Shown here piece by piece: positions 13,723 to 42,638 of a stretch of DNA of 64,000 bases. Made by a program: the position numbers and the translations under genes. Each line of letters begins with the position of its first letter. Positions within the stretch are counted from its first letter, which is position 1. Source of the stretch: an uncultured Gemmatimonadales bacterium (lineage in GTDB: Bacteria; Gemmatimonadota; Gemmatimonadetes; Gemmatimonadales; Gemmatimonadaceae); assembly GCA_963701965.1 (NCBI GenBank), contig OY969695.1:288001-352000 (forward strand). Reading direction: 5' to 3'. A model generated the notes under the pieces. The model was not told where the DNA came from and searched no databases. It saw only the letters and a program-made list of their open reading frames with translations.

Positions 13723-13726
13723 GCGC

Positions 13727-18093: not shown

Positions 18094-18312
18094 AAGGCCC
18101 TCTCTGAGCAGTCGGTCGTCGCTCGCGGCAATGAGCGCGTTTCTCCGAGTGCCATCCACCAAACAGCATAATCGCCGAATGGAGAGTCGCGAAGAGGACG
18201 ACGCCGGGATTTCCAAGCTTGGTGCGAAATGCGGCTGGTTGAAAAGATCTCTCGCATGTAGCCTCGCGCGAGACATTGCCGCCCCTGGTCGACTCCGCTG
18301 CAAGTCCGCTTG

Positions 18313-19709: not shown

Positions 19710-19749
19710 TAGAATCATTTCGTGGATCTCTCGTTCCATATTTGAGAAC
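19710..19749 (+). promoter_or_regulatory. Tandem IclR-type operators upstream of molybdoenzyme 1
   Basis: GAATCA-TTTCG-TGGATC (19712-28) and GTTCCA-TATTT-GAGAAC (19733-49). TAGAAT -10-like at 19710. Confidence 0.55.
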
Positions 19750-22104: not shown

Positions 22105-22138
22105 GGGCGCCGCGCGCCAGCGTGGGGACTGCGCGGTG

Positions 22139-23803
22139 CTAGGACAAGAGCGGCATTTCTTCCGCCGACGGCAGGGCATGGCGGCGCTGTCCCGGGATCG
22201 CCGCGAGCAATTCGCGCGTGTAGGGATGCTGGGGGTTGCCGAAGATCGCCCGCGCCTCGCCCTGCTCGACCACCACGCCGCGCTGCATCACCAGGATGCG
22301 GTGGCAGAGCCGCGCCGCGACGCGCAGATCGTGGGTGATGAAGACGATGCTCAGGTTCAGGCGCTCGCGGATGTCCTCGAGCAGACTCAGGATCTGAGCC
22401 TGCACCGAGACGTCGAGCGCCGACACTGCCTCGTCAGCGATGAGTAGCTCGGGTTCCATCATCAGCGCCCGCGCGATCGACAGGCGCTGGCGCTGTCCGC
22501 CGGAGAACTCATGCGGATAGCGGTCGAGCGCGACTACGTCGATGCGCACGAGCTCGAGCATCTCGCACATGCGTTGAGGACCGCATCGGGCGGCTCGCCG
22601 AAGTTCGCGGGCCCTCGGCCAGTGCGCGGCGTACGGTGAGGCGCGGGTTGAAGGAGCGGAACGGGTCCTGGAAGACCATCTGCACCTTCTTACAGTTGCG
22701 CTGCCATTCGCTCATCGACATTCGCGCCAGGTCCTCGCCGCCGAGCAGGATCCTCCCGGAGGTCGGCGGCGTGAGCCGCGCCAGGCAGCGGCCGAGCGTC
22801 GTCTTGCCTGATCCCGATTCGCCGACCACACCGAGGGTCTCGCCGCGGGCGAGCTCGAGCGACACGCCTGCGACGGCATGCACGACCCGGCGTCGCGACT
22901 TCAGGATCGCGGCCGTCTCGAAGCGCACGTGCAGGTCGTCGACTACGAGCAGCGGCTCGGGCGCGACCTTGGCGGCGTCGGCGCCGAACGATCCGTTCGG
23001 CACCGAGGCGAGCAGCATCTTCGTGTACTCGTGCTTCGGGTTGCGCAGCACCTCGTCGGCGCTGCCGCTCTCAACGATGCGGCCCGACTGCATCACGACC
23101 ACGCGGTCGGCGATCTCGGCGACGACGTCGAAGTCGTGGGTGATGAAGAGGACGCTCGCGTCATGCCGGCCGCGCAGCTCATGGAGCAGGCGCAGAACCT
23201 GCGCCTGCGAGGTGACGTCGAGGGCGGTGGTCGGCTCGTCGGCGATGAGAGGCGCGGCTCCATCGCGAGCGCCATGGCGATCATGACCCGCTGGCGCTGG
23301 CCGCCCGAAAGCTGGTGCGGATACGAGTGCCGCAGCGTTTCGGGGGAGGGAAGATGCACGTCGGCGAGTAGCGCCAGCACCTTGTCGGCGACCTCGCGCC
23401 GGCCCATCTTTGGCGCGTGGAACTCGAACGCCTCGGCGATCTGGTCGCCCACGCGCATAACAGGATTGAGCGCGGTCATCGGCTCCTGGAAGACCATCGC
23501 CATGCGGTTGCCGCGCAGGTCGCGCAGCTCCTGCAGCGGCGCATGCGTGATGTCCCGGCCGGAGAGCAGGATCTGCCCGCGCTCGAGCGTAAGCACGCCG
23601 GGCGGCAAGAGGCCCATCACCGCGCTCGCGGTGACCGACTTTCCCGAGCCCGATTCGCCGACGATGCACACCGTCTCGCGCGCACCGATCGTCAAGTTGA
23701 CCGCTTCGACGGCGTAGGCGCGGTCGCTACCCTTGGGCAGGCGCACGTGCAGGTCGCGGACCTTGAGGACCGGCGCTGCGGCGGGGTCGTCGGCTGCAGA
23801 CAT
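22139..23803 (-). CDS. Peptide ABC transporter fused ATP-binding protein (system 2), frameshifted
   Basis: [20 protein letters not shown], second [36 protein letters not shown]. Confidence 0.85.
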
Positions 23804-23810
23804 CGTCGGT

Positions 23811-24679
23811 TCAGCCCCGAAGCCTGCGCGCCATGCGCGGATCGAGGCGGTCGCGCAGGGCGTCGCCGAACATGTTGAGCGAGAGAATGAGCAGCGCCAG
23901 GAAGATGCCCGGGGTACAGCACGACCCACGGCGCGCGCTGGAAGAAGGGCCGTCCCTCGGCGATGATGCTGCCGAGGCTCGGGATCTCGGGCGGAAAGCC
24001 GAGGCCGAGGAAGCCGAGCGCCGCCTCGGTGAGGATCCCGCCGCGGCGCAGACGAAGGTCGCCTGAACCACGAGCGGGTTGAGCGTGCTCGGCAGGATGT
24101 GCCGGGGATCGATCACTTTCCACGTCGGCGTTCCCATGCCGACCGAGACCTCGACGAAGGGCGCCTCACGCACCGAGAGCACGACGCTGCGCACCAGGCG
24201 CGCGATCCGCGGAATCTCGGGATGGAGATCGCGACGACCATCGAGGCGATGTTCGCCCCCGCGAGCGCCACTAGCGTCACCGCGAGCAGCAGCCCGGGGA
24301 TCGCCATGATGCCGTCCATGATGCGCATCACGCCGCGATAGGGTCGAGGCGGCGGAAGTACCCCGCGACGAGGCCGATGAGAAGGCCGCAGCACACCGCC
24401 ACCATGCTCACCAGCATGGCGAGGGTGACCGAAAGCCGCCCGCCGTAGAGCACGCGGGCGAGCAGGTCGCGGCCGAGCGAATCGGTGACGTCAGTAGTCA
24501 CCGTGCGCTGGGCGAAGGCGCAGGCGCGGCGTGAGGACCGCCGGATCGTGCTGGACTATGAGCGGCGCACCGATCGAGACGAGGATCAGAAGCGCGAGCA
24601 GGCCGAAGGCGAGCAGCATCGTGCGGTCGCGGGCGACGGTGCGGAAGGCGAGGCGCAGCGGGTGAACGATCGCGGACAC
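23811..24679 (-). CDS. Peptide ABC transporter permease DppC-like (system 2), frameshifted
   Basis: TDSLGRDLLARVLYGGR, MRIMDGIMAIP, ILTEAALGFLGLG, GDALRDRLDPR. Confidence 0.8.
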
Positions 24680-24687
24680 TCGTCGCT

Positions 24688-25629
24688 TCAGTAGCGGATC
24701 CGTGGGTCGAGCAGCACGTAGGCGATGTCGACCAGCAGGTTGACGAAGATGTAGGTGAACGAGAAGAAGAGGATCGTTCCCTGCACCACGGGATAGTCGC
24801 GGGCGAGCACCGAGTCGACGATCATCCGGCCGACGCCGGCGATGTTGAACACCGTCTCGGTCACGACCACGCCACTGATGAGCGCGGTGATGCCGACGCC
24901 GACAATGGTGACGATGGGCACCGCCGCGTTGCGCAGCGCATGGCGGAAAAGGACCACGCCCTCGGGCGCGCCCTTCGCGCGCGCGGTGCGCACGAAGTCC
25001 TCGCCGAGGATGTCGAGCATGCTCGCGCGAGTGATGCGCGAGATCAGCGCGATGTACACCGTCGCCAGCGCGAGCGTTGGCAGCACCAGATGGCGCAGGT
25101 ATTCGCCGAGGCCCCGGTCCAGCGATGCGTAGCCCTGCACTGGCAGCCAGTTGAGTTTCACCGCGAAGGCGTAGATGAGGAGGTAGCCGATCACGAAGGA
25201 GGGCACCGAGAAGCCGAGCACCGAGCCCGCGCGGATGCCGCGGTCGATCCAGCCGCCGTGCCGCCACGAGGCGAGCACGCCGAGTGGCACCGCCACGAGG
25301 ATGGTGACGAGGATCGCGGACGCCGCGAGCGAGAGCGTCGGCGGCAGGCGCGCGGCGATGAGCTCAGTGACGGGCTTCTTCGAGATTACCGAGTGGCCGA
25401 GGTCACCGGTGAGGACCGCACTCATCCAGCGCACGTATTGCGTGGTGATCGGCTTGTCGAGGCCCATGTCCTTGCGGATCGCCTCGACCTGCTCCGCGGT
25501 CGCGAGGTCGCCGGCGATCACGTGCGCCGGATCGCCCGGCGCGAAGCGCAGCAGCAGGAACACCACGGTCGCCACCACGACCATGATCGGAACGATCGCA
25601 ACCAGGCGCTGCAGGAGGAGACGGAGCAC
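24688..25629 (-). CDS. Peptide ABC transporter permease DppB-like (system 2)
   Basis: FAPGDPA, GLDKP, GDLGHS, EDFVRTARAKG, RHALRNA, LDPRIRY. Confidence 0.93.
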   Translation of the reverse strand: MLRLLLQRLVAIVPIMVVVATVVFLLLRFAPGDPAHVIAGDLATAEQVEAIRKDMGLDKPITTQYVRWMSAVLTGDLGHSVISKKPVTELIAARLPPTLSLAASAILVTILVAVPLGVLASWRHGGWIDRGIRAGSVLGFSVPSFVIGYLLIYAFAVKLNWLPVQGYASLDRGLGEYLRHLVLPTLALATVYIALISRITRASMLDILGEDFVRTARAKGAPEGVVLFRHALRNAAVPIVTIVGVGITALISGVVVTETVFNIAGVGRMIVDSVLARDYPVVQGTILFFSFTYIFVNLLVDIAYVLLDPRIRY

Positions 25630-25653
25630 GGGCCGGACCGTCCCGCCAGTACG

Positions 25654-27249
25654 TCAGCGCTTCGCCTGCCAGAACAGCGGCAGTGGCGCCTCGACCATGT
25701 TCGCCATCTTGCCGTCGTAGCCCTTGAACTTGGAGAAGCCGCCGAGCGGCACGTAGAAGACCTGATCGTAGTTGAGCTTCTGGATCTCCTTGACGATCGC
25801 CATCTTCTTGGCCCGGTCCGCCTCGACCGCGAACTGATCGCGAAGGCTTTCCATCTGCTCGCTCTTCGACCAGCCGACGTAGCCGATCTCGCCGCGCGCG
25901 TCGAGGTTCGGGTTGATCACCGGGCTCAGCAGGTCGAGCGCGCTCCATTGCGAATGGATCAGGCTCCAGCCGCCCTGCGCGACCGGATCCTTTTTGGTCC
26001 GGCGCGCCTGCATCGTGCTGTAGTCCATCGACTGCACCTCGACGTTCATGCCGATACTGCGCAGCGCCTGGCTCGTGACCGAGGCCATGCTGCCCAGCAC
26101 CTGGATGTCGGTCGGATGCAAGATGACGACCTTCTCGCCCTTGTAGCTGCTCTCCGCGAGCATCGCCTTCGCCTTGGCGAGGTCGGGCGCCTTGAGCTGG
26201 GGCGCGAACTCGTCGGTCGCGTACGGCGAGGCGCACGACAGCACGGCGCCGCACGGCTGATAGACCTTCGGGTCGCCGAACTGCGCCTGCAGGTAGTCGA
26301 CCTGGTTCAGCGCGGCGAGCGCGGCGCGCCGCACCTTGACGTCGTTGAACGGCGGCTGCAGCCAGTTCATCTTGAGCGTGAACATGTCGGTGTGCTTGCC
26401 GAACGACTTCACCGTGATGCCCTTGACGCCCTCGAGCTGCGACATCAAGTCGGGCTGCACGTCCTCGACGAAGTCCACCTCGCCGGCGCGCAGAGCCTGC
26501 ACCGCGGTCTGCACGTCGGGGATCGAGATGACCTCGATGCGGTCGGCCATCGCGATCTTGCCGCCCGCGAAGGCGCTCGCCGGCTCCTTGCGCGGCACGT
26601 AGTCGGTGTTCTTCAGGTAGGTGGCCTTGACGCCGGGCTGGAAGTCGGCGGCGACGAACTTGTACGGACCCGAGCCGACCGCCTCCGTGATCGCCTGCGA
26701 TGCCGGCACCGAAGCGATCCGCTTGGGCATGATGAAGGGCACAGGCGAGCCCTGCTTGGCGAGCGTTTCGATCGTCAGGCCGTAGGGGCGCTTGAGCTTG
26801 AAGATGAAGGTCGAGGGCGCGGGCGAGGTCAGGCTCTCGGTCGACGCCATCAGCCGCGCGCCCATCTGGTCGCGCTCGCTCCAGCGGCGCAGCGATGCGA
26901 TCACGTCCTCGCCGGTAACCGGCGTGCCGTCGTGGAACTTGAGGCCGGGGCGTAGCTGGAAGGTATAGATGAGCTTGTCGGGCGAGACGGTGAAGGTGTC
27001 GACCATCTGCGGCTGCGGGTTGGACTTGTCGTCCATCGCGAACAGCGTGTCGTAGACGAGATAGCCGTGGTTGCGCGTGCTGTACGCGGGCGTCAGCACC
27101 GGGTCGAGGATCTTCAGCTGCGTCTGCAGCACGACCTTGATCGTTCCCGTGCCGCCCTGGGCCGAGGTCGTGGGGGCGAGGGCGACTCCGGCCGCGAGCG
27201 TCGCGGCGGCCACGAGAGCGCGGAGAGGGGGGCGCGGGAAGAGGGTCAT
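25654..27249 (-). CDS. Peptide ABC transporter substrate-binding protein (system 2)
   Basis: Signal peptide, LDPVLTPAYSTRNHGYLVYDTLF, LRPGLKFHDG, GSGPYKF, PPFNDVKVRRA. Confidence 0.93.
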   Translation of the reverse strand: MTLFPRPPLRALVAAATLAAGVALAPTTSAQGGTGTIKVVLQTQLKILDPVLTPAYSTRNHGYLVYDTLFAMDDKSNPQPQMVDTFTVSPDKLIYTFQLRPGLKFHDGTPVTGEDVIASLRRWSERDQMGARLMASTESLTSPAPSTFIFKLKRPYGLTIETLAKQGSPVPFIMPKRIASVPASQAITEAVGSGPYKFVAADFQPGVKATYLKNTDYVPRKEPASAFAGGKIAMADRIEVISIPDVQTAVQALRAGEVDFVEDVQPDLMSQLEGVKGITVKSFGKHTDMFTLKMNWLQPPFNDVKVRRAALAALNQVDYLQAQFGDPKVYQPCGAVLSCASPYATDEFAPQLKAPDLAKAKAMLAESSYKGEKVVILHPTDIQVLGSMASVTSQALRSIGMNVEVQSMDYSTMQARRTKKDPVAQGGWSLIHSQWSALDLLSPVINPNLDARGEIGYVGWSKSEQMESLRDQFAVEADRAKKMAIVKEIQKLNYDQVFYVPLGGFSKFKGYDGKMANMVEAPLPLFWQAKR

Positions 27250-27252
27250 CGT

Positions 27253-27310
27253 GTTCCCTGAAATGGAAAGGTGATTCCGAAGTCTGGCATTCGAATTTGC
27301 GCAATGTCAA
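27253..27310 (-). promoter_or_regulatory. Sigma70-like promoter plus tandem IclR-type operators for ABC system 2
   Basis: TTGACA(27310-05)-N18-CAGACT. Boxes GTTCCC-TGAAA-TGGAAA (27253-69) and ATTCCG-AAGTC-TGGCAT (27274-90). Confidence 0.6.
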
Positions 27311-27377
27311 ACGGGCGAGTACGGATGCGGTCTTCGTCCGGGCCGGGCTGCTGCAAGATCAGGGCCAGCCGGAGGCG

Positions 27378-27441
27378 TTGACAAGGCGGCAGGGTCCTCC
27401 TAGACTTCAAAATATGGACCGCATGTTCCGATTTATGGAAC
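27378..27441 (+). promoter_or_regulatory. Sigma70 promoter plus tandem IclR-type operators for the CoA-transferase operon
   Basis: TTGACA(27378)-N17-TAGACT(27401). Boxes ACTTCA-AAATA-TGGACC (27404-20) and GTTCCG-ATTTA-TGGAAC (27425-41). Confidence 0.7.
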
Positions 27442-27451
27442 AGAAAGAGAC

Positions 27452-28634
27452 ATGAACGACCCCGCGTCGATCGCCCTTCCCCTCGCCGGCGTGCGGGTGA
27501 TCGAGTTCTGCTCGGTCGCCGCGGGACCCTTCTGCGGCATGCTGCTCGCCGACATGGGCGCCGACGTACTGAAGATCGAGCCGCCCTCGGGCGACGCGCT
27601 GCGCACCTGGCCGCCGATCAACGACGGCTTCAGCGAGAACTTCGCGTCGATCAACCGCAACAAGCGCTCGGCGGTCCTCGACCTCAAGCTGCCGGAGCAT
27701 GCCGAGGCGGCGCGCAGGCTCTGCGCAGACGCCGACGTGGTGATCGAGAACAACCGGCCCGGCGTGATGGACCGGCTCGGCCTCGGCTACGAGCGGCTCT
27801 CGGGCGCGAACCCGAAGCTCGTCTACTGCTCGATCTCGGCCTTCGGCCAGAGCGGGCCGCGCGCCGCCGAGGGCGGCTTCGACTTGACGATCCAGGCCGC
27901 CGCGGGCGTGATGAGCGTCACCGGCGAGTCCGACGACGTGCCGGTGAAGTGCGGCGTGCCGTTGTCGGATTTCGCCTCGGGCTTATACGGCGCGTTTTCG
28001 ATCGCGAGCGCGCTCCTCGCGGCGCGCGGCACGGGTGCCGGCGCGTGGCTCGACATCCCGATGTTCGGCTGCACGCTCGCGATCAGCGCGCTGCAGACGA
28101 GCGAGTACTTCGGCACCGGCCAGAGCCCGAAGAAGCTCGGCTCGGCGCATCCGCGAAACGCTCCGTACCAGGCGTTCCGCGCCGCGGACGGCTACTTCGT
28201 CGATCGCCGCGGGCAACGACGGTCTGTGGCGGGCCGTGCTGCGCGCGGTCGACAACGAACTGCTCGCCGACGATCCGCGCTTCCTTACGCCGACGCTGCG
28301 CGCGAAGAACCAGGTCGCGCTTAAGGAGATCCTCGAGCTGCGCTTCGTCGAGCGCGACGTCGCGCACTGGATCGAGACCTTCCGCGCCGCGGGCGTGCCG
28401 CATTCGCGGATCAACACCTACGCCGAGGCGCTCGCCGATCCGCAGGTCGAGGCGATGGGCTGGGTGCAGGAGATCGAGCTGCCGTCGGGCGCTCGCACGC
28501 GCACCTTCGCGTCGCCGATCCGCATCAACGGCAAGAACCTGCCGATCTTGCAGCGCCCGCCGGCGCTCGGCGAGCACTCCGACGACGTGTTGCGGCAGGC
28601 GGTCCGCGAGGCGGATTCGATCCTGCAGCCCTGA
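27452..28634 (+). CDS. CoA-transferase family III (CaiB/BaiF), one frameshift near 28,200
   Basis: PLAGVRVIE, AGPFCGMLLADMGADVLKIEP, NRNKRS, ENNRPG, VPLSDFASG (catalytic Asp), PPALGEHS. Confidence 0.92.
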
Positions 28635-28654
28635 ACTTCCGGAAGGATGGCTCC

Positions 28655-29212
28655 ATGCGCAGCGACCCCTTGGCCGATTTCGTTCAGCGTCTCGAGGGGA
28701 TAGTCTCGCGGGACGCGCGCAGCGAGGACGCCGTCCTCGGCGAGGTGCGCGAGGCGATGCGGGCGCTGGTCGCGATGGACGACTGGCTGCCCGAGCCGTT
28801 CACCCGGCCCGACGCGGAGCGCTACCGGCAGTATCTGCTCCATGCCGACCCGGACGACCGCTTCTGCGTCGTCAGCTTCGTCTGGGGCCCGGGCCAGCAC
28901 ACGCCGATCCACGACCACTGCGCCTGGGGTGTGATCGGCATGCTGCGCGGCGCCGAGGTGACGACGTCGTTCAGCGAGTCGGCGTCGGGGATGCAGCAGG
29001 GCGAGGAGCTGACCCTTCGGCCCGGCGACGTTGCGGTGGTCGGGCCGAGCGTCGGCGACATCCACAAGGTGCGCAACGCCTACGCCGACCGCGTCTCGAT
29101 CAGCATCCACGCCTACGGCACGAACATCGGCAAGCAGGTCCGCCACGTCTTCGACGTGCAGTCGGGCGCACGCAAGGACTTCGTCTCCGGCTACTCGAAC
29201 GCCGCCGCATGA
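28655..29212 (+). CDS. Gln-type thiol dioxygenase (3-mercaptopropionate dioxygenase-like)
   Basis: YRQYLL (Gln-type), FVWGPGQHTPIHDH, GDIH, SIHAY triad, conserved Arg in NIGKQVRHVF. Closely matches the 3-MDO pattern. Confidence 0.88.
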   Translation: MRSDPLADFVQRLEGIVSRDARSEDAVLGEVREAMRALVAMDDWLPEPFTRPDAERYRQYLLHADPDDRFCVVSFVWGPGQHTPIHDHCAWGVIGMLRGAEVTTSFSESASGMQQGEELTLRPGDVAVVGPSVGDIHKVRNAYADRVSISIHAYGTNIGKQVRHVFDVQSGARKDFVSGYSNAAA

Positions 29213-29976
29213 CGACGCCCGAGCTCGCGGTCGGCTGGAGCGACGACGGCGTCTGTACCGCCACGCTCAACCGTCCCGGCGCCGGCAACGCGCTCTCGGC
29301 CGGGCTCGTCGCCGCGCTCGGCTCCGTCGTCGACGCGGCGGCCGGGCGGCAGGCGCGCCTGCTCGTGCTGCGCGGCGAGGGTCGCCACTTCTGCACCGGC
29401 TTCGATCTTTCGCAGGTCGACGACGAGAGCGACGACTCGCTGCTCGCCCGCTTCTGCCGCGTCGAGATGATGCTGCAGAAGGTGCATCGCGCCCCTTTCC
29501 CGACACTCGCGCTCGCGCACGGCCGCACGATTGGCGCGGGCGCCGACCTGTTCGCCGCGTGCACGCACCGCCTCGCCGCCCCGGGGACGCAGTTCGCGTT
29601 TCCCGGCGCGTCGGGCTTCGGCCTCGTCCTCGGCACGCGCCGCCTGGTGCAGCGCGTCGGCGCCGAACGCGCGCGGCGCTGGGTCGAGCCGGGCGCAACG
29701 ATCGGCTTCGACGAGGCGCTCACGGCGGGCCTCGCCACCGGCGCGCTTGCCGACGCGTCGGGCGCCGCAGACATCGTCCGCTGCCTCGGCGCTGACACGT
29801 CGGGCGCCGCCAACCCCTTCCTCGGCTCGGCGCTCGACGCCGCCGATCCGGTTCATGATCACGCCGACCTCGCAGTGCTCGTCCGCTCGGCGGCCGTGCC
29901 CGGGCTGAAGGCGCGGATCGCCGCGTACGTCGAGCGCGGCAGGCAGCAGCGTCATTCCACTTCTTCACCTTCGTAG
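29209..29976 (+). CDS. Crotonase/enoyl-CoA hydratase-superfamily protein, non-canonical active site
   Basis: [43 protein letters not shown] overlap with the dioxygenase. Confidence 0.85.
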
Positions 29977-29984
29977 AGATCGCC

Positions 29985-31531
29985 ATGGCTTCGCAAACTT
30001 CCCTGAAAGACGACACCTTCACCCTGCTCGCGCGCCTCGGCGTGAGCGCGGGTCAACTCGAAGACGGCAGCCTCGCCGCAACGACGCCCATCACCGGCGA
30101 GACGATCGCCCGGCTGCCGGAGATGTCCGCCGCCGACGCGACCGCGCGCGATCGGCGCCGCGCACGCAGGCGTTCCTCGAGCCTGGCGCAAGGTCCCGGC
30201 GCCGCGCCGCGGCGAGCTGGTCCGCCTGCTCGGCGAGGAGCTGCGCGCCGCGAAGGCCGATCTCGGCCGCGCTGGTCACGCTCGAGGCCGGCAAGATCGT
30301 CTCCGAGGGCCTCGGCGAGGTGCAGGAGATGATCGACATCTGCGACTTCGCCGTCGGCCTGTCGCGCCAGCTCTACGGCCTGACGATCGCCACCGAGCGG
30401 CCGGACCACCGCATGATGGAGACCTGGCATCCGCTCGGCGTGGTCGGCGTCATCTCGCGCCTTCAACTTCCCGGTCGCGGTCTGGGCGTGGAACGCGGCG
30501 CTGGCGCTGGTCTGCGGCGACACCGTGGTCTGGAAGCCGTCGGAGAAGACGCCGCTGACCGCGCTCGCCGTGCCAGGCGCTGTTCGAGCGCGCGGCGGCG
30601 CAGCTTCGGCGACGCGCCGACGGGCCTCTCGGCCCTGCTGATCGGCGGCCGCGACGTCGGCGAGGCGCTGGTCGACGCATCCGCGGTCGCCGCTGGTCTC
30701 GGCGACCGGCTCGACCGCGATGGGCCGCGCGGTCGGCGCCGCGCGCTCGCCGCAGCGCTTCGCCCGCTCGCTCCTCGAGCTCGGCGGCAACAACGCCGCG
30801 ATCGTCTGCCCGTCGGCCGACCTCGACCTGGCGCTGCGCGGCGTCGCCTTCGCCGCCATGGGCACCGCCGGCCAGCGCTGCACGACGCTGCGCCGCCTGT
30901 TCGTCCACGAGAGCGTCTACGACGAGCTTCTGCCGCGCGCTGAAGCGACGCCTATCGGCACGTGCAGGTCGGCGATCCGCGCGAGGCCGGCACGCTGGTC
31001 GGCCCGCTGATCGACGAAGGGCGCCTTCGACGCGATGCAGCGCGCGCTGGACGCAGGCGAAGGGCGCCGGCGGCCACGGTCACCGGCGGCGAGCGCGTCG
31101 CCGCCGACGGTGCCGCCGACGCCTTCTACGTCCGCCCGGCGCTGGTCGAGATGCCGGCGCAGGCCGAGGTCGTGCAGCGCGAGACCTTCGCGCCGATCCT
31201 CTACGTCATGCGCTACTCGCGACCTCGACGAGGCGATCGCGCCTGCACAACGACGTGCCGCAGGGCCTGTCGTCGTCGATCTTCACCAACGACCTGCGCG
31301 AGGCCGAGCTCTTCCTCTCGGCGCGCGGCTCCGACTGCGGCATCGCCAACGTCAACATCGGCCCCTCGGGCGCCGAGATCGGCGGCGCGTTCGGCGGCGA
31401 GAAGGAGACCGGCGGCGGCCGCGAGTCGGGCTCCGACAGCTGGAAGGCCTACATGCGCCGCGCCACCAACACGATCAACTACGGCCGCGACGCTGCCGCT
31501 GGCCCAGGGCGTCAAGTTCGACGTCGACTAA
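29985..31531 (+). CDS. Aldehyde dehydrogenase, ALDH7/AmaB (piperideine-6-carboxylate dehydrogenase-like), many 1-nt insertions
   Basis: [93 protein letters not shown]. Confidence 0.9.
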
Positions 31532-31538
31532 GCGGGCG

Positions 31539-32695
31539 ATGAAGCTCGACACGCTGCTCGTCCACGCGGGTCGGGATCCCGATCGCTTCGAAGGATTGGT
31601 GAACGCGCCCGTGACGCGGGCGTCGACAATCCTGCATCCCGACATGGCGTCGTTCAACGCCGCCGCGTCGAACAAGCACGGGGTTCCCTACTACGGCCGA
31701 TACGGCACCTCGATCTCGAAGCTGCTCGCCGAGGCGTGCGCCGAGTTGGACGGCGCCGCGGGCGCTGTGCTCTTCCCTCGGGCTTGGCGGCGATCGCCGG
31801 CACCCTCTCGGCTTTGCTCAAGCCCGGCGGCCACCTGCTGGTGGTCGACTCGGTTTACGCGCCGGTGCGCGACCTGTGCGAAAAGGTCCTGGAGCAGCAG
31901 CGCATCGCGGTCACCTTCTACCCGCCCGACGCCGGCGCCGGCATCGCTGCTCAAATCCGGCCCGAGACACAGGCAATCTATTGCGAAGCGCCCGGCTCGC
32001 ACACCTTCGAGATGCAGGACGTGCCGGCGATTGGCCGGGTCGCCGCGGCGCGGGGCATTCCGGTCATCGTCGACAACACGTGGGCGACGCCCTACTACTT
32101 CAAGCCGCTCCAGCACGGCGCCGACATCGCGATCCAGGCGGGGACGAAGTACCTCGTCGGCCATTCCGACGCGATGCTCGGTGTCGCGACCTGCACAGGG
32201 GCGTGGCTGCCGCTGCTGCAGCGCTCGACCGCGCTCCACGGCAACTCGGTGAGCGCCGACGACTGCTACCTCGCTCTGCGCGGCATGCGCACGCTCGCGG
32301 TGCGGCTGCGTCAGCACTACGAGGGCGCGTTGAAAGTCGCGGGCTGGCTGCAGGGCCGGCCGCAGGTCAGGCGGGTGCTCTATCCGCCGCTTGAGCAGGG
32401 GACCGGCCGGGGGCTGTGGGAGCGCGACTTCACCGGCGCGTCGGGGCTGTTCGGCGTCGAACTCGATCCGGCGTGCGAGGCGCACGTCGATGCCTTCGTC
32501 GATGGGCTGCAGCTCTTCGGCATCGGCGTGAGCTGGGGCGGGTACGAGAGCCTCGTGCTACCCAGCCACGTGCGGCGCAGCCTCCCTTCGACGTCTTCGG
32601 GTCCGTTGGTCCGCTTCCACATCGGCCTCGAGGATCCCGACGACCTGATCGCCGACCTCGCAGCAGGTCTCGAGCGGATGCCAGCAGCACGCTGA
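31539..32695 (+). CDS. metC: Cystathionine beta-lyase/cysteine-S-conjugate C-S lyase (PLP), one frameshift near 31,778
   Basis: [74 protein letters not shown]. Confidence 0.85.
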
Positions 32696-32725
32696 CGCGC
32701 GCTCGGTTGGAAAAGCGCGAGGGCG

Positions 32726-33502
32726 TCAGGCCGCCGCGGCCGCCAGGGCCGCGCGAGGCACCGTGCCTTCGAGCGACCGCTCGACGAGGCGCGCCGCGGC
32801 GATCACCTCGTCGGCGAGGCTCTTGATGTTTCCGGGCTTGATGCGCGCCGAAGGCCCGGAGACCCCGATCGCAGCGAGCACGTTGCCCTTGACGCTGCGG
32901 ATCACAGCCGCGACGCCCCACACCGTCTCGCGCCATTCGCCGCGGTTGACCGCATAGCCGTTGGCGCGGATCCGGCCCATCTCGCGCAGGTACTCCTGCG
33001 GATCGATGATCGTGCGCGGCGTGTGCGCGCGCAGGTGCGAAGCCACCGACGCGAGCACGGGCGGGGGCTGCCACGCGAGCATCGCTTTTCCGGTGGCGAC
33101 GCAGAACGCCGGCGCGCGGCCGCCGATCTCCGAATACGCGCGCACCGGCTCGGGGCTGTCGAGCTTGTGGACGTAGACAACCTCCTCGCCGTCGAGCACG
33201 GAGAGGTGCACCGTCTCGCGGGTGCGCGCGAGGAGGCGTCCCATCGCCTCGCTCGCTGCCGCCTTGATGCGGTAGCCCACCTCGACCGCGGCGCCGAGCT
33301 CCCAGAGACGGAGCGACACTTGGTATTGCGCGGTCGATTCGTCCCTCAGCACGTAGCCGAGCTCGACGAGCGCCTGCAGCAGCCGATGCACGTTGCTCTT
33401 GCCCAGTGAGAGCTGCGCCGCGAGGTCGCTCACCCCTTGCGGCTCGCGGCTTCGCGCCAGCACCTCCAGCAGCTGCAGCCCCTTTACCAGCGTGTTATTC
33501 AT
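32726..33502 (-). CDS. IclR-family transcriptional regulator
   Basis: NTLVKGLQLLEVL, HTH KSNVHRLLQAL, TRETVHL, PAFCVATGKAMLA, GYAVNRGE, AIGVSGP. Confidence 0.93.
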   Translation of the reverse strand: MNNTLVKGLQLLEVLARSREPQGVSDLAAQLSLGKSNVHRLLQALVELGYVLRDESTAQYQVSLRLWELGAAVEVGYRIKAAASEAMGRLLARTRETVHLSVLDGEEVVYVHKLDSPEPVRAYSEIGGRAPAFCVATGKAMLAWQPPPVLASVASHLRAHTPRTIIDPQEYLREMGRIRANGYAVNRGEWRETVWGVAAVIRSVKGNVLAAIGVSGPSARIKPGNIKSLADEVIAAARLVERSLEGTVPRAALAAAAA

Positions 33503-33512
33503 CGGGCGTCGT

Positions 33513-33550
33513 CGAGAAGAAGGTGGATCGACCGTTCCATTGTATGGACC
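33513..33550 (-). promoter_or_regulatory. IclR-type operator upstream of the regulator (autoregulation)
   Basis: GTTCCA-TTGTA-TGGACC (33534-50) plus half-site TGGATC (33524-29) 21 bp away. Confidence 0.6.
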
Positions 33551-33554
33551 GCCC

Positions 33555-34198
33555 TCATGCACCAACAGTCCGTAGGCTGCCGTCGGGCAGGCGGAAGCGG
33601 TAGGCGAGCGACGCGGTCGCGGCGGGCTCGAGCACGGCCACGAGGTCGACCACGCCGAGGCGCCGCAGCACGCCGCGCAGCGCCTCGGCCTCGGGATGGC
33701 GCATTTCGATCCCCTCGAGCTTCGGGCCGAGGAACTGCATTGCCTGCGAGGGATGCGGCCCGGGCGACCATTCGATGAAGCCCGGCACGAGCCCGTCGTA
33801 CGGCATCGCGCCCGCCTCGGGCACGGTGAGCCGCCAGGTGCGCTCGCCGCGCGACATGCGCCGCGCTTCGCCGAGCTCGACCGGGCTCGTCGCGACGACG
33901 CGGTCGAGATCATCCGTGCGCACGACCCAGCCGACGCCGCGCGGCGCCGTCGCGATGCGCGCCTGCACGGCAGGATCGTCGAGCCCGAACCAGCGCTTGC
34001 GCGGCACCGGCGGCGCGTCGGGGTCGACCGCGATCAGCTCGAGGAAGCGCGCGTCGCCGACGTTGACCACGCGGTTGTGCGTGCTCATGTCGGGGTGCTT
34101 CCGCCCGGCGGGATGTCGATGCCGAGGGCATCGCGCAGCGCCGCGGCGCCGTCGGCGAGCGACGCCGTGCCGAGGGTGACGTGGTCGAGGGCGATCAT
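33555..34198 (-). CDS. VOC/Glyoxalase_3-family protein (frameshift near 34,100)
   Basis: ALDHVTLG...LADG, GGKHPDMSTHNR, FLELIAVDP, RWFGLD, PGFIEW, HPS. Confidence 0.85.
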
Positions 34199-36519
34199 CG
34201 TTCTTCTCCTGCGAAGTCGGGGCGCGGCACGAATGGCGGCGGCCGGTGCGCGGTGACCGGCGGCAGTGGCCCGTTCCAGCGCTCCACCTCGACCAGCGTG
34301 CTCTGCGCCGCGCAGCCCTGGCCGAGCCGCGAGCTGCCGCGGTCGGGCGTGAGCACGTTGGGGTTGCCGTGCTTGTCGAGCGTCCCGATCTCGCCCGGCA
34401 CGAGCGGGTCGTACCAGGCGCCCGTGGCCAGTTGCACCACCCCCGGGCGGATCGTGTCGCTGACCTGCACGCCGACGAGGATCGCGCCGCGGTCGTTGAA
34501 GACGCGCGCGACGTCGCCGGCGCGGATGCCGCGCGCCGCGGCGTCCGCGCCACTCATCTTCATCGGCTCGCGGCCCTGGATCTTGTCGGCGAGGCTGACG
34601 CTGCCCTGGTCGTACTGGCTGTGCAGCCGGTTCGCGGGCTGCGGCGAGAGCATGTGTAGCGGGAAGCGCTGCGCGCGCTCGCTGCCGAGGAACTCTTGCG
34701 AAGGCTTCCAGACCGGATGGCCCGGGCACTCCGCATAGCCGAGGCTCGCGAGCTTCTCGGAGAAGAGCTCGATCCGGCCCGACGGCGTGGCGAGCGGATG
34801 CTTCACCGGGTCGTCGCGGAACGCGCGCAGCAGGACATTCGGGCGCTGGGGCAGCGGGTACTCGAGGACGCCGCGGGCCCAGAACTCGTCGAACGACGGA
34901 AGCGTCAGGCCCGACTCGGCGGCGCGCGGCAGCGACTCGAGATAGAGCTGGCGCAGCCACGCCATCACGTCGCGGCCTTCCGTGAACGCCTGCTCGACGC
35001 CGAGCTTCGCGGCGATCGCGGCGAAGATCGCGTAGTCGTCCTTCGCCTCGGCGTGCGGCTCGAGCACCCGCTTCATCGCGGTCATGAAGCCGTCGCCCGA
35101 CGAGCTGCCGATGTCGTCGCGCTCGAGCATCACGGTGGCGGGCAGCACGACGTCGGAGAACTTTGCCTGCGCGGTCCAGTACGCCTCGTGGACGACGATC
35201 GTCTCGGGCCGGCGCCATGCGCCGATCAGCCGGTTGATGTCCTGGTGGTGGTGGAAGGCGTTGCCGCCCGCCCAGTAGACGAGGCGGATGTCGGGATAAG
35301 TGAGCGCCGCACCGTTGTAGTCGTAGGCGGCGCCCGGGTTCAGCAGCATGTCGGAGAGGCGCGCGACCGGGATGTAGGTCTCGATCGCGTTGTGGCCCTG
35401 CGGCAGGCGCGGGCCGGAGAAGCCGTTGCGGCCGGCGCCGATGTCGTTAAAGCAAGCGTAGCCGAGGCCGAGACCACCGCCCTCGGTGCCGATGTGGCCG
35501 AGCAGCGCGGCGAGCACGACGAGGGCGAAGAACGGCTGCTCGCCCTGCAGCGACCGCTGCAGCGACCAGGCCATGTTCACCATCGTGCGCTTGGCCGACA
35601 TGCGTCGCGCCAGGGTCCGGATCCGCTCCGCGTCGCAGCCGACGATCGGCGCCGCCCATTCGCAGCTCTTCGGCTGGCCGTCGCCCGTGCCGCGCACGTA
35701 ATCGGCGAAGCGGTCGAAGCCGCTGGTGTGGCTGGCGACGAAGGCGCGGTCGTACAGGTCCTCCTCGATCAGCACGTGGCAGAGCGCGAGGATGAAAGCG
35801 GTGTCGCTGCCCGGCCGGATCGACAGCCATTCGGCCTCGGGTATCTCGGCGAGGTCGTCCTTCACTGGCGAGACGTTGACGAACTCGACGCCGGCCTCGC
35901 GGAGCTTCCCGAGCCAAAACGGGATCGCGTGGTCGTTGGCGCCACCCGAATTCACCTGGGCATTGCGCGTCGGCAGGCCGCCGAAGGCGACGAACAGCTC
36001 GCAGTGCTCGGCGAGCAGCGACCAGCTCGTCTGCGTCGGCCGGAGCGTGTCGAGCTCGGCGATCACGTATGGCAGGACGCGCCGGCCGGCGGCGTTGCTG
36101 TACGTGTCCTTGAAGTAGACGTAACCGCCCGCGGCGTTGAGGAAACGGTGCACCTGGCTCTGCGCATGGTGGAAGCGCCCCGCGCTCGACCAGCCGTACG
36201 AGCCGCCGAAGATTGCTCCGTTGCCGTGCTCGCCGCGCACCCGCTCGATTTCCTTCGCGACGAGCGTGGTCGCCTCATCCCAGCTCACCTCGACGAAGGG
36301 CTCGCTGCCGCGCCGCTCGCGCGACGCCGCGCCCTTCTCGAGAAAGCCCGCGCGCACCGCGGGCCGGCGAACCCGCGTCGGGCCGTGCACCGTGTCGGGC
36401 AGCGAATGGCCGATCGGCGACGGATGGCGGTCCCACGGGACGGGCTTGACGCCGACGAGGCGGCCCTGATCGACGTCGAGGCGGTAGCTGCCCCAGTGGG
36501 TGGTGGTGAGGGGTTCCAT
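34195..36519 (-). CDS. Mo-bisPGD S/N-oxide reductase, BisC-like (copy 2), intact
   Basis: TTHWG, GGSYGWSSAGRFHHAQSQ, TYSNAA (Ser ligand), YWAGGNAFHHHQD, TPSGRIEL, RLHSQ, GNPNVLT. No Tat leader. Confidence 0.92.
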   Translation of the reverse strand: MEPLTTTHWGSYRLDVDQGRLVGVKPVPWDRHPSPIGHSLPDTVHGPTRVRRPAVRAGFLEKGAASRERRGSEPFVEVSWDEATTLVAKEIERVRGEHGNGAIFGGSYGWSSAGRFHHAQSQVHRFLNAAGGYVYFKDTYSNAAGRRVLPYVIAELDTLRPTQTSWSLLAEHCELFVAFGGLPTRNAQVNSGGANDHAIPFWLGKLREAGVEFVNVSPVKDDLAEIPEAEWLSIRPGSDTAFILALCHVLIEEDLYDRAFVASHTSGFDRFADYVRGTGDGQPKSCEWAAPIVGCDAERIRTLARRMSAKRTMVNMAWSLQRSLQGEQPFFALVVLAALLGHIGTEGGGLGLGYACFNDIGAGRNGFSGPRLPQGHNAIETYIPVARLSDMLLNPGAAYDYNGAALTYPDIRLVYWAGGNAFHHHQDINRLIGAWRRPETIVVHEAYWTAQAKFSDVVLPATVMLERDDIGSSSGDGFMTAMKRVLEPHAEAKDDYAIFAAIAAKLGVEQAFTEGRDVMAWLRQLYLESLPRAAESGLTLPSFDEFWARGVLEYPLPQRPNVLLRAFRDDPVKHPLATPSGRIELFSEKLASLGYAECPGHPVWKPSQEFLGSERAQRFPLHMLSPQPANRLHSQYDQGSVSLADKIQGREPMKMSGADAAARGIRAGDVARVFNDRGAILVGVQVSDTIRPGVVQLATGAWYDPLVPGEIGTLDKHGNPNVLTPDRGSSRLGQGCAAQSTLVEVERWNGPLPPVTAHRPPPFVPRPDFAGEER

Positions 36520-36531: not shown

Positions 36532-37605
36532 TCAGGACGCGGGGGCGGCGGCGACGCGGTTCGGCGCCGGCGAGGACGCGGGCGGTGCGGCGCTCACCGG
36601 CGGTGCCCCGCTGCGTTGGGCGACCGTCGTCTCGACGCCCCATGCGGTGCGGATCCGGCCGTCGCCGGCGATCTCGACCCGGTGGCAGGCGACCGATTCG
36701 ACATCGCTCACCGCGCGCAGCTCGGGATAGACGCTCCGGCAAAGGTCGATCGCGTACGGGCAGCGGGTCGAGAAGCGGCAGCCTGGCGGCGGGTCGAGCG
36801 CGCTCGGCACCTCGCCTTCGAGCAGCGTCGCCGGCTTCGCCTCACCGAGAAGCCCGTCCATCGTTGGCGTCGCGTCGCGCAGCGCGGCCACGTACGGATG
36901 CAGCGGCGCGGTCCAGAAGCTGCGATGGCTCGACTGGGCGACGACGCGGCCGAGGTACATCACGGCGATCCTGTGCGCGAGATGGCGACGACGCAGAGGT
37001 CGTGCGAGATGAAGAGGTAGGTGAGGTCGAGCTCGCGCTGGAGCCGCGCAGCAGGTTGACACCTGCGCCTGCACCGAGACGTCGAGCGCCGAGACCGGCT
37101 CGTCGCAGACGATAGCTTGGGGCCGGCGCGAGGGCGCGGGCGATCCCGATCCGCTGCCGCTGCCCGCCCGAGAACTGGTGCGGAAGCCGCTCGAAGGCGC
37201 GGCCCGAGGCCGACCATGCGTGAGCAGCTCGCGACCCGCGCGCGCCGCTCGGCGCGGCCCGACGCCGTGCACGAGCAGCGGCTCGTCGACGATGGGCGCC
37301 GCCGTGAGGCGCGGGTTGAGCGAGCCGAACGGGTCCTGGAAGACCATCTGCATCCGCGGGGCGCAGCGGCCGCACCCGGCGCGCGTGAGCCCGTGAGCGC
37401 TGCCTCGAGCGTGATCGCGGCCGGCGTGGGCTCCGCCGAGGCCCATGACGCGCGCGCCAGCGTCGACTTGCCGCATCCCGACTCGCCGACCAGGGCGACC
37501 GTCTCGCCGGCTCGATGTCGAGCGTCGACCCCGTCGACCGCGCGCAGCACCTTGCCGGCGACCGGGAATTCGACCGCGACGCCGCGGCAAGAGAGCACGA
37601 GCCCC
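36532..37605 (-). CDS. Peptide ABC transporter ATP-binding protein DppF-like (system 3), frameshifted
   Basis: [64 protein letters not shown]. Confidence 0.78.
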   Translation of the reverse strand, partial: GARALLPRRRGRIPGRRQGAARGRRGRRSTSSRRDGRPGRRVGMRQVDAGARVMGLGGAHAGRDHARGSAHGLTRAGCGRCAPRMQMVFQDPFGSLNPRLTAAPIVDEPLLVHGVGPRRAARAGRELLTHGRPRAAPSSGFRTSSRAGSGSGSGSPAPSRRPQAIVCDEPVSALDVSVQAQVSTCCAAPARARPHLPLHLARPLRRRHLAHRIAVMYLGRVVAQSSHRSFWTAPLHPYVAALRDATPTMDGLLGEAKPATLLEGEVPSALDPPPGCRFSTRCPYAIDLCRSVYPELRAVSDVESVACHRVEIAGDGRIRTAWGVETTVAQRSGAPPVSAAPPASSPAPNRVAAAPAS

Positions 37606-38600
37606 TCGTTGCAGCGCTCGTCGTACGGTAGAAGCACGCCGCGGCGCGGGGATCGCCGTTCGATTCGAGCTCGGGCCGTTCCTCGGCGCAGCGCGCCTGG
37701 CGGCGCGGGCAGCGCGCGGCGAAGGCGCAGCCCTTGCCGAGCGGCCGGGCGCGGAGGTGCCGGAATCTCGACCAGGCGCGGAATCTCGCCGCCTCGCCGT
37801 CCATCGGCCGGTCGGGATCGCGGCGAGGAGGCCGACCGTGTACGGATGGCGCGGCGGCGAACACCGCGCGCACCGGGCCTGATTCGACGATGCGGCCGGC
37901 GTACATCACGGCGACGTCCTGCGCCGCCCGGCGGCACGGCGAGGTTGTGCGTGATCAGCACACCGCGGTGCCGTGTCCTGCTGCGCCTTCTTGAGAGCGC
38001 TGCATCACCTGCGCCTGCACCGTGATGTCGAGCGCGGTCGTCGGCTCGTCGGCGATCAGGATGCGCGGCTTCGACGCGAGCGCCATCGCGATCATCACGC
38101 GCTGGCACATGCCGCCCGAGAAGCGGTGCGGGTAATGGTCGATCCGCGTCTCGGGGTCGGGCAGGTGGACGTCTCAGCAGCTCGATCGCTACCTTGCGTG
38201 CCTCGGCCTTGCGCACGCCGCGGTGCGACGCGGATCGCCTCGACGTCTGCGCGCCGCGGTCTGCACCGGGTTGAGCGAGGCGTCGGGCCCTGGAAGATCA
38301 TCGAGATCGCGCCGTTGCGCACTTGGCACATGCGCGATTCGCTCGCCTTCGCCAGGTCTTCGCCCGCGAGGCGGATGCTGCCGTCGCCGAGGCGCACCCC
38401 GGGCTCGGGCAGGATGCGCAGCGCAGCGAGGAGCGCGGTCAGCGACTTGCCGCGAGCCCGATTCGCCCACGAGTCGCGAGCGTGCCGCCGGCGTCGACCC
38501 TGAAGCTCACGTCGTCGACGGAGGCGCACAGGCGTGGGCGCCGGGCAGACCGACTCGACGGACGAGGTGGTCGACCTCGAGCAAGGGGGGGGCGGCGGGC
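37600..38600 (-). CDS. Peptide ABC transporter ATP-binding protein DppD-like (system 3), heavily frameshifted
   Basis: [36 protein letters not shown]. Limits approximate. Confidence 0.7.
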
Positions 38601-39448
38601 GGCGTCTCGACGAGGCGAGGGTTGAGCGCGTCGTTCAGGCCTTCGCTGACGAGAGCTGATCGGCGAGCACCGTGAGCTGGATGGCGAGGAACCGGGAATC
38701 GCGGCGAGGTACCACGCGGTGCGCAGCGACTGGCGGGGCCGAAGCCGATCATCGCGCCCCAGCTCATCGAGTTCGGATCGCCGAGGCCGAGGAAGGACAG
38801 GCCCCGCCTCGATCAGGATCGCCGAGGCGACCATGATCGAGCCGGTGACGATGATCGGCGCGATGCAGTTCGGCAGGATTTGCGTGAAGATGATGCGCGG
38901 CGTGTCATGCCGATGACGACGCACGATTCGACGAAGGCGCGCTTGCGCAAGGTGAGGAACTGGCCGCGCACGAGTCGCGCCACCGGCGGCCACGAGACGA
39001 CGGCGATCGCGGCGCAGATGATCTTCGTCGAGGGCTGGAGCAGGGCGACGAGCACGATCACGAGCAGGAAGTGCGGGATCGTCTGGAACACCTCGGTGAA
39101 GCGCATCAGCAGGTCGTCGATCATGCCGCGGAAGTAGCCCGCGACCGCGCCGACGACGACGCCGATGAAGACTGCCGCGCTCGCGGCGACGATGCCGATC
39201 GTGAGCGAGACGCGCGCGCCGTGTATCAGCCCGGCGAGCACGTCGCGGCCGGCGTTGTCGGAGCCGAGCGGATGCGTCGGGTCGTCGCCGGGCCACTGGA
39301 ACGGCGTGGTCGCCATGGCGAACGGATCCATCGCATACAGGAACGGACCGACGATCGCCAGGACGACGATCGCCGCCAGGACGACAAGCCCGAACAGCGC
39401 GGTCGGGCTCCTCGCGAAGCGCGGCCAGAAGCCGAGCCGAGCGATCAC
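38570..39448 (-). CDS. Peptide ABC transporter permease DppC-like (system 3), frameshifted
   Basis: HPLGSDNAGRD, DDLLMRFTEVFQTIP, SWPPVARLVRG, QILPNC, EGLNDALNPRL. Confidence 0.8.
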
Positions 39449-40365
39449 TTGCCCACCTCGATGCGCGGGTCGAGCACGCTGTAGAGCAGGTCGACGCCGA
39501 GGTTGACGATGACCACGAGCACCGACGACATGAAGAGGATGCCCATCAGGAGGTTGTAGTCGCGCTGGAACAGGGCGTCGAACGCGAGCGTGCCCAGGCC
39601 GGGCCAGCCGAACACGACCTCGACGACGACCGAGCCGCCGAGCACCGCGCCGAGCTGCACGCCGAACAGGCTGACGAGCGGCAGGATCGCGTTGCGCAGC
39701 ACGTGCCGGTACGCGACCTGGCGCTCGCTGAGGCCCTTAGCCTTGGCGGTACGCGCGAAGTCCATGCCGGCGATCTCGAGCATCGAGGCGCGCATCAGCC
39801 GGGTGTAGGTGGAGATGTAGAAGAGAGCGAGCGTGACGGCGGGCATCAGCAGGTGCTTGCCGACGTCGAAGGCGTTGCCGACCGGCCCGAAGTCCTCGCC
39901 GATCGTGCTCATGCCGCTGCTCGGCAAGAGGCCTAGCTTCACCGACATCAGCACCGTGAGCATGAGGCCGAACCAGAACAGCGGCGTCGAGTAGCCGAGT
40001 AGCGCGACGACCGAGATCACCGAGTCGCGCAGCGACCCGGGCCGGCGCGCCGCGGCGACGCCGAGGACGATGCCGCCGACGAGCGCGATCCCGAGCGCGC
40101 TGAACATCAGCAGCAGCGTTGCTGGAAAGCGCGACAGGATGAGCTTCACGACCGATTCGTTGTGGCGGAACGAATGGCCGAGGTCGAGCGTCGCGAGCGC
40201 GCCGAGGTAGCGGCCGAGGCGCACCGGCAGCGGCTTGTCGAGGCTGTATTTCTCGCGAAGCGCGGCGAGGTAGGCCGCATCGGCCGCGCCGGACTCGCCC
40301 GCCATCACGTCGACCATGTCCCCCGGCGCGGCGTTGACGATCAGGAAGTTGGTGCAGGCGATCAG
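39445..40365 (-). CDS. Peptide ABC transporter permease DppB-like (system 3), 5'-truncated at the junction
   Basis: [48 protein letters not shown]. No start codon of its own. Confidence 0.88.

Positions 40366-42638
<2,273 letters not shown>

Follow-up and report, generated by a model that had tools for sequence, protein, structure and literature searches.

A regulated thiol dioxygenase, CoA-transferase, and crotonase operon as a candidate route for the degradation of sulfur analogs of lysine and pipecolate

The window analyzed in this study is a stretch of 64,000 nt, positions 288,001 to 352,000 of the forward strand of contig OY969695.1 (GenBank assembly GCA_963701965.1, filed as an uncultured Gemmatimonadales bacterium; genome G000 below), and our subject is a five-gene operon at its positions 27452–32695. 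All five genes lie on the + strand and are separated, in order, by 20, −4, 8, and 7 nt. They encode a family III CoA-transferase of a clade specific to the gene module described below (27452–28634; PF02515), a Gln-type thiol dioxygenase of the 3-mercaptopropionate dioxygenase (3-MDO) family (28655–29212; PF05995), a crotonase of the 3ISA subfamily that is a predicted desulfinase (29209–29976; PF00378), an ALDH7/AmaB-family aldehyde dehydrogenase (29985–31531; NF050084), and a MetC-family pyridoxal phosphate-dependent C-S β-lyase (31539–32695; TIGR01324). The dioxygenase and crotonase genes are intact, and the others carry frameshifts in the read: one near 28200 in the CoA-transferase gene, one near 31775 in metC, and about six in the ALDH7 gene, for which NF050084 was the top model for four of the five pieces scanned (the remaining piece had no match). 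Because the metagenome contig L096, with 85% DNA identity to the window, encodes all five genes unbroken, followed by genes for an IclR regulator and a glyoxalase-like protein, these frameshifts are most likely long-read errors.

A σ70-like promoter (TTGACA-17-TAGACT; 27378–27406, + strand) precedes the operon and is the single match of a motif scan within 27150–33700, where shuffled sequences gave a mean of 0.1; the layout of five co-oriented genes behind one promoter, described in a first-pass annotation of this DNA, was thus confirmed. The palindrome GTTCC-N7-GGAAC (27425–27441) follows the promoter and is the presumed IclR operator. A motif search found three matches to it in the window versus 0.06 expected; the motif recurs at 16541, 19733, 27253, and 33534, and an additional match with two mismatches lies at 50470, past the contig junction discussed below. 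The motif was found upstream of the CoA-transferase gene in 38 of 108 loci, versus none of 108 in-gene controls. It is presumably bound by the IclR regulator encoded on the − strand at 32726–33502, which has an operator copy of its own (33534–33550) and a homologue of which is present in 50 of 85 loci. Co-regulation of the S-oxide reductases, proposed in the same annotation, agrees with the matching motif (19733) in front of a BisC-type reductase gene. We regard this organosulfur operon as real, conserved, under regulation, and apparently new to the literature; it is an altered form of a known pathway design, probably with a new enzyme activity. A literature search that left most subscription papers outside its coverage found no paper describing it.

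The alignment of the crotonase was used to fetch the 80 top-ranking loci each from genomes and metagenomes, 5 plasmid regions, and 11 wider regions from a family sample (176 loci, counted without dereplication). The CoA-transferase, dioxygenase, and crotonase genes, hereafter the core or module, occur together in 65/80 of the genome loci, 52/80 of the metagenome loci (many of them short), 3/5 of the plasmid regions, and 5/11 of the wider regions, while ALDH7 was found near the core in only 7/176 and MetC in 4/176 loci. Within the close clade, ALDH7 follows the crotonase gene in 6/9 loci, and the other three sequences stop within about 200 nt of that gene. All five genes are present in the window, in L009 of genome G061, in L096, and, reordered, in L223 of genome G385, where their products are 47–74% identical to those of the window. 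The G385 island, of about 35 kb, has in common with the window the IclR and glyoxalase-like genes, BisC reductases, and two Opp transporters, and RidA, LVIVD, CobW, and WD40-like genes are common to the G385 and G061 islands. A further locus (L148) combines the core with MetC, RidA, BisC, and MmgE, ALDH7 not being in the stretch covered. The full set is thus complete in two lineages, and the three-gene core is widespread. The five-gene operon does recur in a gene-neighborhood search, as proposed, but the conserved unit is the core plus IclR, and ALDH7 and MetC are rare, swappable feeders.

The crotonase is most similar to PDB 3ISA of Bordetella parapertussis (E 7e-67, 42% identity, template-modeling score 0.85), a member of the same subfamily whose PDB title says putative enoyl-CoA hydratase/isomerase and gives no function. 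Its model (predicted local distance difference test 91.7) matched crotonase folds in Foldseek, with DmdD among the closer ones after 3ISA, and a search of the ESM Atlas returned generic crotonase names only. The oxyanion-hole motifs (G64/D66 and G109-A110-G111) are conserved. The two catalytic glutamate sites, Glu144 and Glu164 in the numbering of the rat enzyme, are occupied by Asp113 and Gly133 in 172/172 homologues, the canonical hydratase pair being absent; Arg81 (168/172), Arg84 (161/172), and the nearly fixed Glu86 and Arg145 are further residues of the family. The equivalent columns hold Glu/Glu in the Escherichia coli hydratase PaaF and Glu/Pro in the crotonase-fold methylmalonyl-CoA decarboxylase ScpB of E. 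coli, in whose mechanism a gas is lost from an α-substituted thioester. The operon crotonase agrees with ScpB in the oxyanion-hole motifs and in having an acidic residue at the Glu144 site but not at the Glu164 site, and differs in carrying Asp rather than Glu and family-specific arginines, and the proposed leaving group would be SO2 rather than CO2. This residue pattern looks decarboxylase-like, consistent with the earlier suggestion that the non-canonical crotonase could be a desulfinase. On chemical grounds, a crotonase without flavin should be able to stabilize an α enolate but not a β carbanion, for which reason a two-carbon sulfinate is favored.

The best PDB matches of the dioxygenase (6XB9, 4QMA, and 3USS; E 1e-54 to 1e-58) are the Av, Pa, and Ralstonia 3-MDO structures, and with the 3-MDO active-site residues given in the accessible part of PMC8050391 as a reference, it is a Gln-type enzyme with the 3-His site, the SHY motif, and the equivalent of Arg168. 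Dioxygenase motifs and trees were tried as substrate markers and proved uninformative, since the module enzymes could not be separated from those linked to Acd (two quick tree searches, with sequences thinned at 90% and 72% identity, L072 being dropped from the second). A third gene neighborhood of Gln-type thiol dioxygenases was seen in 6/6 plasmid regions examined (L237–L242), where the dioxygenase gene lies directly upstream of that of a rhodanese protein of about 530 aa.

The nearest known system is Mdo, Act/SucCD, and Acd of Advenella mimigardefordensis DPN7 and Variovorax paradoxus TBEA6 (accessible parts of PMC5373536 and PMC6370202), which likewise has a Gln-type dioxygenase and a family III CoA-transferase and leads from a thiol through a sulfinate and its CoA ester to sulfite; related module loci likewise have genes for AhpD and TctC nearby. 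The operon differs in having a 3ISA-type crotonase instead of Acd, IclR instead of LysR, and ALDH7, MetC, and BisC as feeders. Its CoA-transferase is 63–67% identical to module homologues versus 35–38% to Acd-linked Act (identified by its position adjoining Acd, not from the TBEA6 sequence) and, judged from these identities, is not an Act orthologue; a PDB search with it found no close characterized relative. The earlier remark that no Acd is visible was borne out, as none scored over the cut-off (NF042439) in G000, G385, or G061, with the limit that G000 and probably G061 are chimeric and show the true host in part. The operon would work like Mdo–Act–Acd but has neither Acd nor an Act orthologue.

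Acd was scored among the top 5–44 candidates per genome and exceeded the cut-off in 10/80 crotonase-bearing genomes, nine of which do not have the full core at the locus, G077 being the only one that does. A family sample of 351 genomes has 4 with Acd (3 over the cut-off) and 25 with the crotonase, and three genomes belong to both sets. With so low a baseline and this overlap, we rejected the idea that Acd and the crotonase exclude each other, which had been considered as a proof of replacement. Act–Acd–Mdo and the module are carried separately, each with its own dioxygenase, in G163, G425, and G077, and this coexistence argues for different substrates without proving them. At four loci (L211–L213 and L218), Act–Acd–Mdo is followed by TctC, GST, and disulfide-reductase-like flavoprotein genes, which are likely a disulfide feeder.

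The intact homologues of the ALDH7 exceed the NF050084 cut-off of 730 bits (804 in L096 and 816 in L223), the window copy being scored piecewise only. Against the TIGR01324 cut-off of 366, the MetC piece from the window scored 381 and that of L096 435, both below the cut-offs of the PRK subfamilies. This MetC is 56% identical to an Aminobacter MetC that adjoins a thiol dioxygenase and a rhodanese gene, a string similar to the mercaptosuccinate dioxygenase cluster considered below. At E ≤ 1e-130, no member of its clade was found in a sample of 401 genomes of the order; at E ≤ 1e-125, members were found in 12/251 and 2/81 genomes of two other samples. Close homologues elsewhere adjoin thiol dioxygenases or BisC, and one in G094 lies near TctC and LeuCD/PrpB-like genes, not ALDH7. 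This context argues against cystathionine, in methionine synthesis, as the likely physiological substrate of the operon MetC. The mercaptosuccinate dioxygenase cluster (msdo, cystathionine β-lyase, and rhodanese; accessible text of PMC5373536) resembles the operon in its MetC-type lyase (56%) beside a thiol dioxygenase and in an α-sulfino acid that loses sulfite, but its dioxygenase is distant (PDB 8VNI, E 3e-9), and its desulfination is non-enzymatic and has no CoA step. A second MetC of G385 was considered as a housekeeping enzyme, and this was rejected because it sits in another BisC-linked cluster. That second cluster, which is conserved (L273 on G385:C14; also L270 in G1089 and L272 in G074), holds genes for BisC, an Lrp regulator, MetC, a DapA-like lyase, an SDR, TctC, and a DadA-like dehydrogenase, and is a candidate for the catabolism of an S-substituted cysteine sulfoxide.

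The AmaA/AmaB pipecolate pathway (NF050086 and NF050084) is the comparison for the entry step, since the ALDH7 scores above the AmaB cut-off and the related genome G061 has a pipecolate-oxidase (AmaA)-like gene some 21 kb downstream, beyond the position of the junction in the window. To this extent the earlier expectation that the initial oxidase may lie beyond the junction was supported, but the gene scores 268 bits versus a cut-off of 600, and no AmaA over the cut-off was found (179 bits at best in G000, and no match in G385 at E ≤ 1e-40). Moreover, the downstream genes of the operon encode sulfur enzymes, not 2-aminoadipate enzymes. G385 contains a CoxSML-type Mo hydroxylase; because it has the five genes without an AmaA-like oxidase, the entry step either differs or is not a pipecolate oxidase.

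No two of three candidate C-S-cleaving feeders share a locus among the 176. MetC is present in 4 loci; an ADP-forming acyl-CoA ligase is present in 42, most of which also have TctC and a second crotonase; and an adenylosuccinate-lyase-like enzyme accompanies AhpD in 17, often together with MmgE/PrpD. The top functionally named NCBIfam model for the last is the C-S enzyme XcbD, at 483 bits, which is below the cut-off of 600. Because these feeders swap without sharing a locus, we place the core downstream of thiol release: the feeders would supply a free mercapto-acid or a sulfinate, on which the core would then act. BisC is nearby in 22/176 loci. Of the 13 loci with a PRK06105 omega-aminotransferase, 12 also have the ligase, often alongside an SSADH-like dehydrogenase. 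Bradyrhizobium plasmids add an amino-acid dehydrogenase, a ComDE-like decarboxylase, and an ALDH, and ComDE-like decarboxylase genes are present in L004 and L057. In light of ComDE chemistry, the omega-aminotransferase and ComDE-like genes would point to a two-carbon carboxymethyl arm.

Six loci (L006, L008, and L227–L230) have IclR or LysR, a VanA-type Rieske oxygenase, and a transporter; all six keep the CoA-transferase and crotonase genes without the thiol dioxygenase, which fits a sulfinate being made another way. One locus encodes a formaldehyde dehydrogenase, one encodes a TauE exporter, and the set is a candidate methylsulfone-acid demethylation route. In Caenimonas soli (L059, 2823–16169), the core lies inside an S-methyl-ergothioneine catabolic cluster (NF058531, NF058532, ErtD, and ErtE all above the cut-off) with BisC, where the thiol released may not be methanethiol. 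Genes for an M19 dipeptidase, a GNAT, and an S58 peptidase adjoin the core in L016, L024, L027, L030, and L061, which suggests glutathione- or mercapturate-type conjugates as upstream substrates.

We put it at somewhat less than an even chance that the operon degrades a sulfur analog of lysine or pipecolate via S-carboxymethylcysteine, thioglycolate, sulfinoacetate, and sulfinoacetyl-CoA, a route whose reactions and substrates are all inferred. S-oxides of the substrate would first be reduced by the co-regulated BisC enzymes, and the ALDH7 would oxidize S-(2-oxoethyl)cysteine, an exact isostere of its substrate aminoadipate semialdehyde, to S-carboxymethylcysteine. By β-elimination, the MetC-type lyase would convert this to thioglycolate, pyruvate, and ammonia; thioglycolate would be oxidized to sulfinoacetate by the dioxygenase and activated to sulfinoacetyl-CoA by the CoA-transferase. 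The crotonase would then release acetyl-CoA and SO2/sulfite without a cofactor, in a step akin to a malonyl-type decarboxylation, its oxyanion hole stabilizing the thioester enolate while SO2 departs from the α carbon. In favor of this step, α-sulfino acids lose sulfite easily, sulfinosuccinate decaying to succinate and sulfite (accessible parts of PMC5373536 and bioRxiv 10.64898/2026.05.19.726356). The parent compound could be thialysine or thiomorpholine-3-carboxylate, both of which occur in nature (PMC7545470, in its accessible part), the S-oxide of the latter, chondrine, or the adduct that cysteine or glutathione forms with a two-carbon aldehyde. A thia-analog of pipecolate/lysine catabolism had been proposed in the first-pass annotation, and it gains from the recurrence of the five genes, the missing Acd, and the decarboxylase-like crotonase, but loses from a dioxygenase inseparable from 3-MDO and from a conserved unit that is the core. 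Cycloalliin, also named there as a substrate, fits badly, since with its 5-methyl group the product would be a ketone, which is not an ALDH substrate.

Several observations weigh against this thioglycolate route. The dioxygenase is a typical 3-MDO-family protein, indistinguishable in sequence from 3-mercaptopropionate dioxygenases: Acd-linked Mdo proteins have the identical Arg168-His motif (4/4) and fall, in a weakly supported tree, among the module dioxygenases, which do not form one clade. No paper was found in which thioglycolate was assayed on a 3-MDO, and the word does not occur in the accessible text of PMC8050391. The crotonase shares 15–23% identity with ScpB, so that the residue match is one of pattern and not of kinship. 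Acd in only one full-core genome (G077) fits its replacement by the crotonase, although Acd is rare anyway (4/351). The decay of sulfinosuccinate takes place without an enzyme (accessible parts of PMC5373536 and bioRxiv 10.64898/2026.05.19.726356); by analogy, sulfinoacetate might desulfinate spontaneously, making two of the enzymes unnecessary. No entry enzyme is conserved, with an AmaA-like gene in G061 and none in G385, a different Rieske protein stands beside the dioxygenase in L034 and L128, and the kin among the 176 loci are not independent. Our literature search, limited as stated above, found no paper with sulfinoacetate, sulfinoacetyl, or a thioglycolate or mercaptoacetate dioxygenase.

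The similarity to 3-MDO speaks for the main rival, a three-carbon variant in which S-(2-carboxyethyl)cysteine would yield 3-mercaptopropionate and the crotonase would replace Acd on 3-sulfinopropionyl-CoA, e.g., by β-elimination to acryloyl-CoA. The Cupriavidus string of CoA-transferase, dioxygenase, crotonase, TctC, and AhpD mirrors act-acd-mdo-ahpD-tctC of Advenella, Acd is absent from G000, G061, G385, and nearly all full-core genomes, and 3-mercaptopropionate is described as an abundant freshwater thiol (bioRxiv 10.64898/2026.05.19.726356, accessible part). We nevertheless consider this variant rather unlikely: the CoA-transferase differs from Act, three genomes carry both systems side by side, the substrate of the ALDH7 would exceed the right length by one atom, and a cofactor-free crotonase should not be able to stabilize a β-carbanion, with sulfoxylate a poor leaving group. 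A PrpB homologue was found in 1/176 loci with the query used (a second was seen separately), whereas methylcitrate genes lie beside acd in Advenella (PMC5373536, accessible part).

A different order of events, with the CoA-transferase and crotonase before the dioxygenase, seems improbable. A thioether dicarboxylate would be activated and would lose its thiol in a retro-Michael reaction of the kind put forward for TDP-CoA in Variovorax TBEA6, and the dioxygenase would only detoxify the thiol, the sulfinate being exported. YeiH and TauE exporters near some loci and the Foldseek likeness to DmdD agree with it, but the separate acyl-CoA ligase of 42 loci, usually accompanied by a second crotonase, and the MetC or XcbD-like lyase of others seem to take care of thiol release; MetC would render the step redundant in the operon, and the crotonase has no acid at the Glu164 site that is used for α-proton abstraction. 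Just as doubtful is that ALDH7 and MetC are unrelated passengers, serving pipecolate catabolism and cystathionine or cysteine cleavage, or that the thiol is another α-mercapto acid such as thiolactate. Both proteins exceed the cut-offs of ordinary families and are rare near the module, and the cluster ALDH7 is the sole one over the cut-off in G385. However, two lineages that differ in gene order keep both beside the core, together with IclR, Glyoxalase_3, BisC, and two Opp transporters, and G061 and G385 have the RidA, LVIVD, CobW, and WD40-like genes in common on top of these; in G385, an AmaA-like gene is missing while further MetC paralogues are present, and the MetC clade, not found in the 401 sampled genomes of the order at the threshold given above, has its close relatives beside thiol dioxygenases or BisC.

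Extending the thioglycolate route beyond this operon, we tentatively suggest that 3ISA-type crotonases may be cofactor-free desulfinases that handle SO2 as malonyl-CoA decarboxylases handle CO2, that the core may be a widespread bacterial thioglycolate pathway to which interchangeable feeders bring cysteamine- or cysteine-derived thioethers, and that the operon may be a 4-thia copy of lysine/pipecolate catabolism. If this is true, the crotonase superfamily gains a new reaction, the flavin-free C-S cleavage of a sulfinate, and the solved but unassigned structure 3ISA gains a function; under the 3-mercaptopropionate variant, the crotonase would still be a desulfinase of a new kind. Genes would also be named for bacterial thioglycolate breakdown, for which our literature search found no gene-level pathway, while thousands of tons of thioglycolate are released yearly and it is degraded in Organisation for Economic Co-operation and Development tests (PMC6061509, accessible part). 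In the 351-genome sample, the crotonase is about six times commoner than Acd (25 versus 4) and may be the commoner route of sulfinate removal. The ALDH7/MetC extension is the clearest clue to the substrate, and carbocysteine, thioglycolate, and thialysine are commercial compounds.

The contig looks chimeric, which leaves the host of the operon uncertain. At position 40371 of the window, an ATP-binding cassette (ABC) permease gene is joined to clpC at mid-gene. Contig positions 1–328,371 (~328 kb) are an outlier in tetranucleotide composition and repeat tRNA types present later. G000 therefore probably joins two organisms, and the operon host probably differs from the organism of the rest of the contig. 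Homologous loci are mostly from Burkholderiales. A search of 61 relatives of G000 matched three (G000 itself and two weak ones) and was set aside, since in a chimeric contig those genomes are kin of the other organism and are uninformative on the operon host. The near-identical island L009 (G061:C2) lies on a 707-kb contig with many frameshifts in a genome labeled Acidobacteriota, and may be misbinned too.

Around the operon, the − strand encodes a glyoxalase-like (Glyoxalase_3) protein (33555–34198), retained in L009, L096, and L223, a second BisC-family Mo S/N-oxide reductase (34195–36519; 73% to the G385 copy), and an Opp/Dpp-type ABC transporter (36532–40371) that is cut by the chimeric junction. 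A divergent Opp/Dpp-type ABC transporter (22136–27249, − strand; 57–76% to G385 homologues) has the operator copy 27253–27269, and the first BisC-family reductase gene, which is frameshifted (19784–22104, + strand), has the copy 19733–19749. A weaker operator copy with two mismatches (16541–16557) lies upstream of a third peptide-type ABC binding protein gene. The left edge of the island is marked by two tRNA-Lys genes (9106–9287). The region 9755–19685 holds genes for an amidase, the third peptide ABC transporter, a cyclic amidohydrolase, a 106-aa Cys-rich protein, and CobW, and its products could open an amide or lactam precursor. An NCBIfam search with the LVIVD-repeat protein at 1e-45 gave no match; this protein, CobW, and the WD40-like protein form a conserved trio (78%, 57%, and 38%) in the extended island, as seen in L223 (9091–12379) and L090 (5666–8763).

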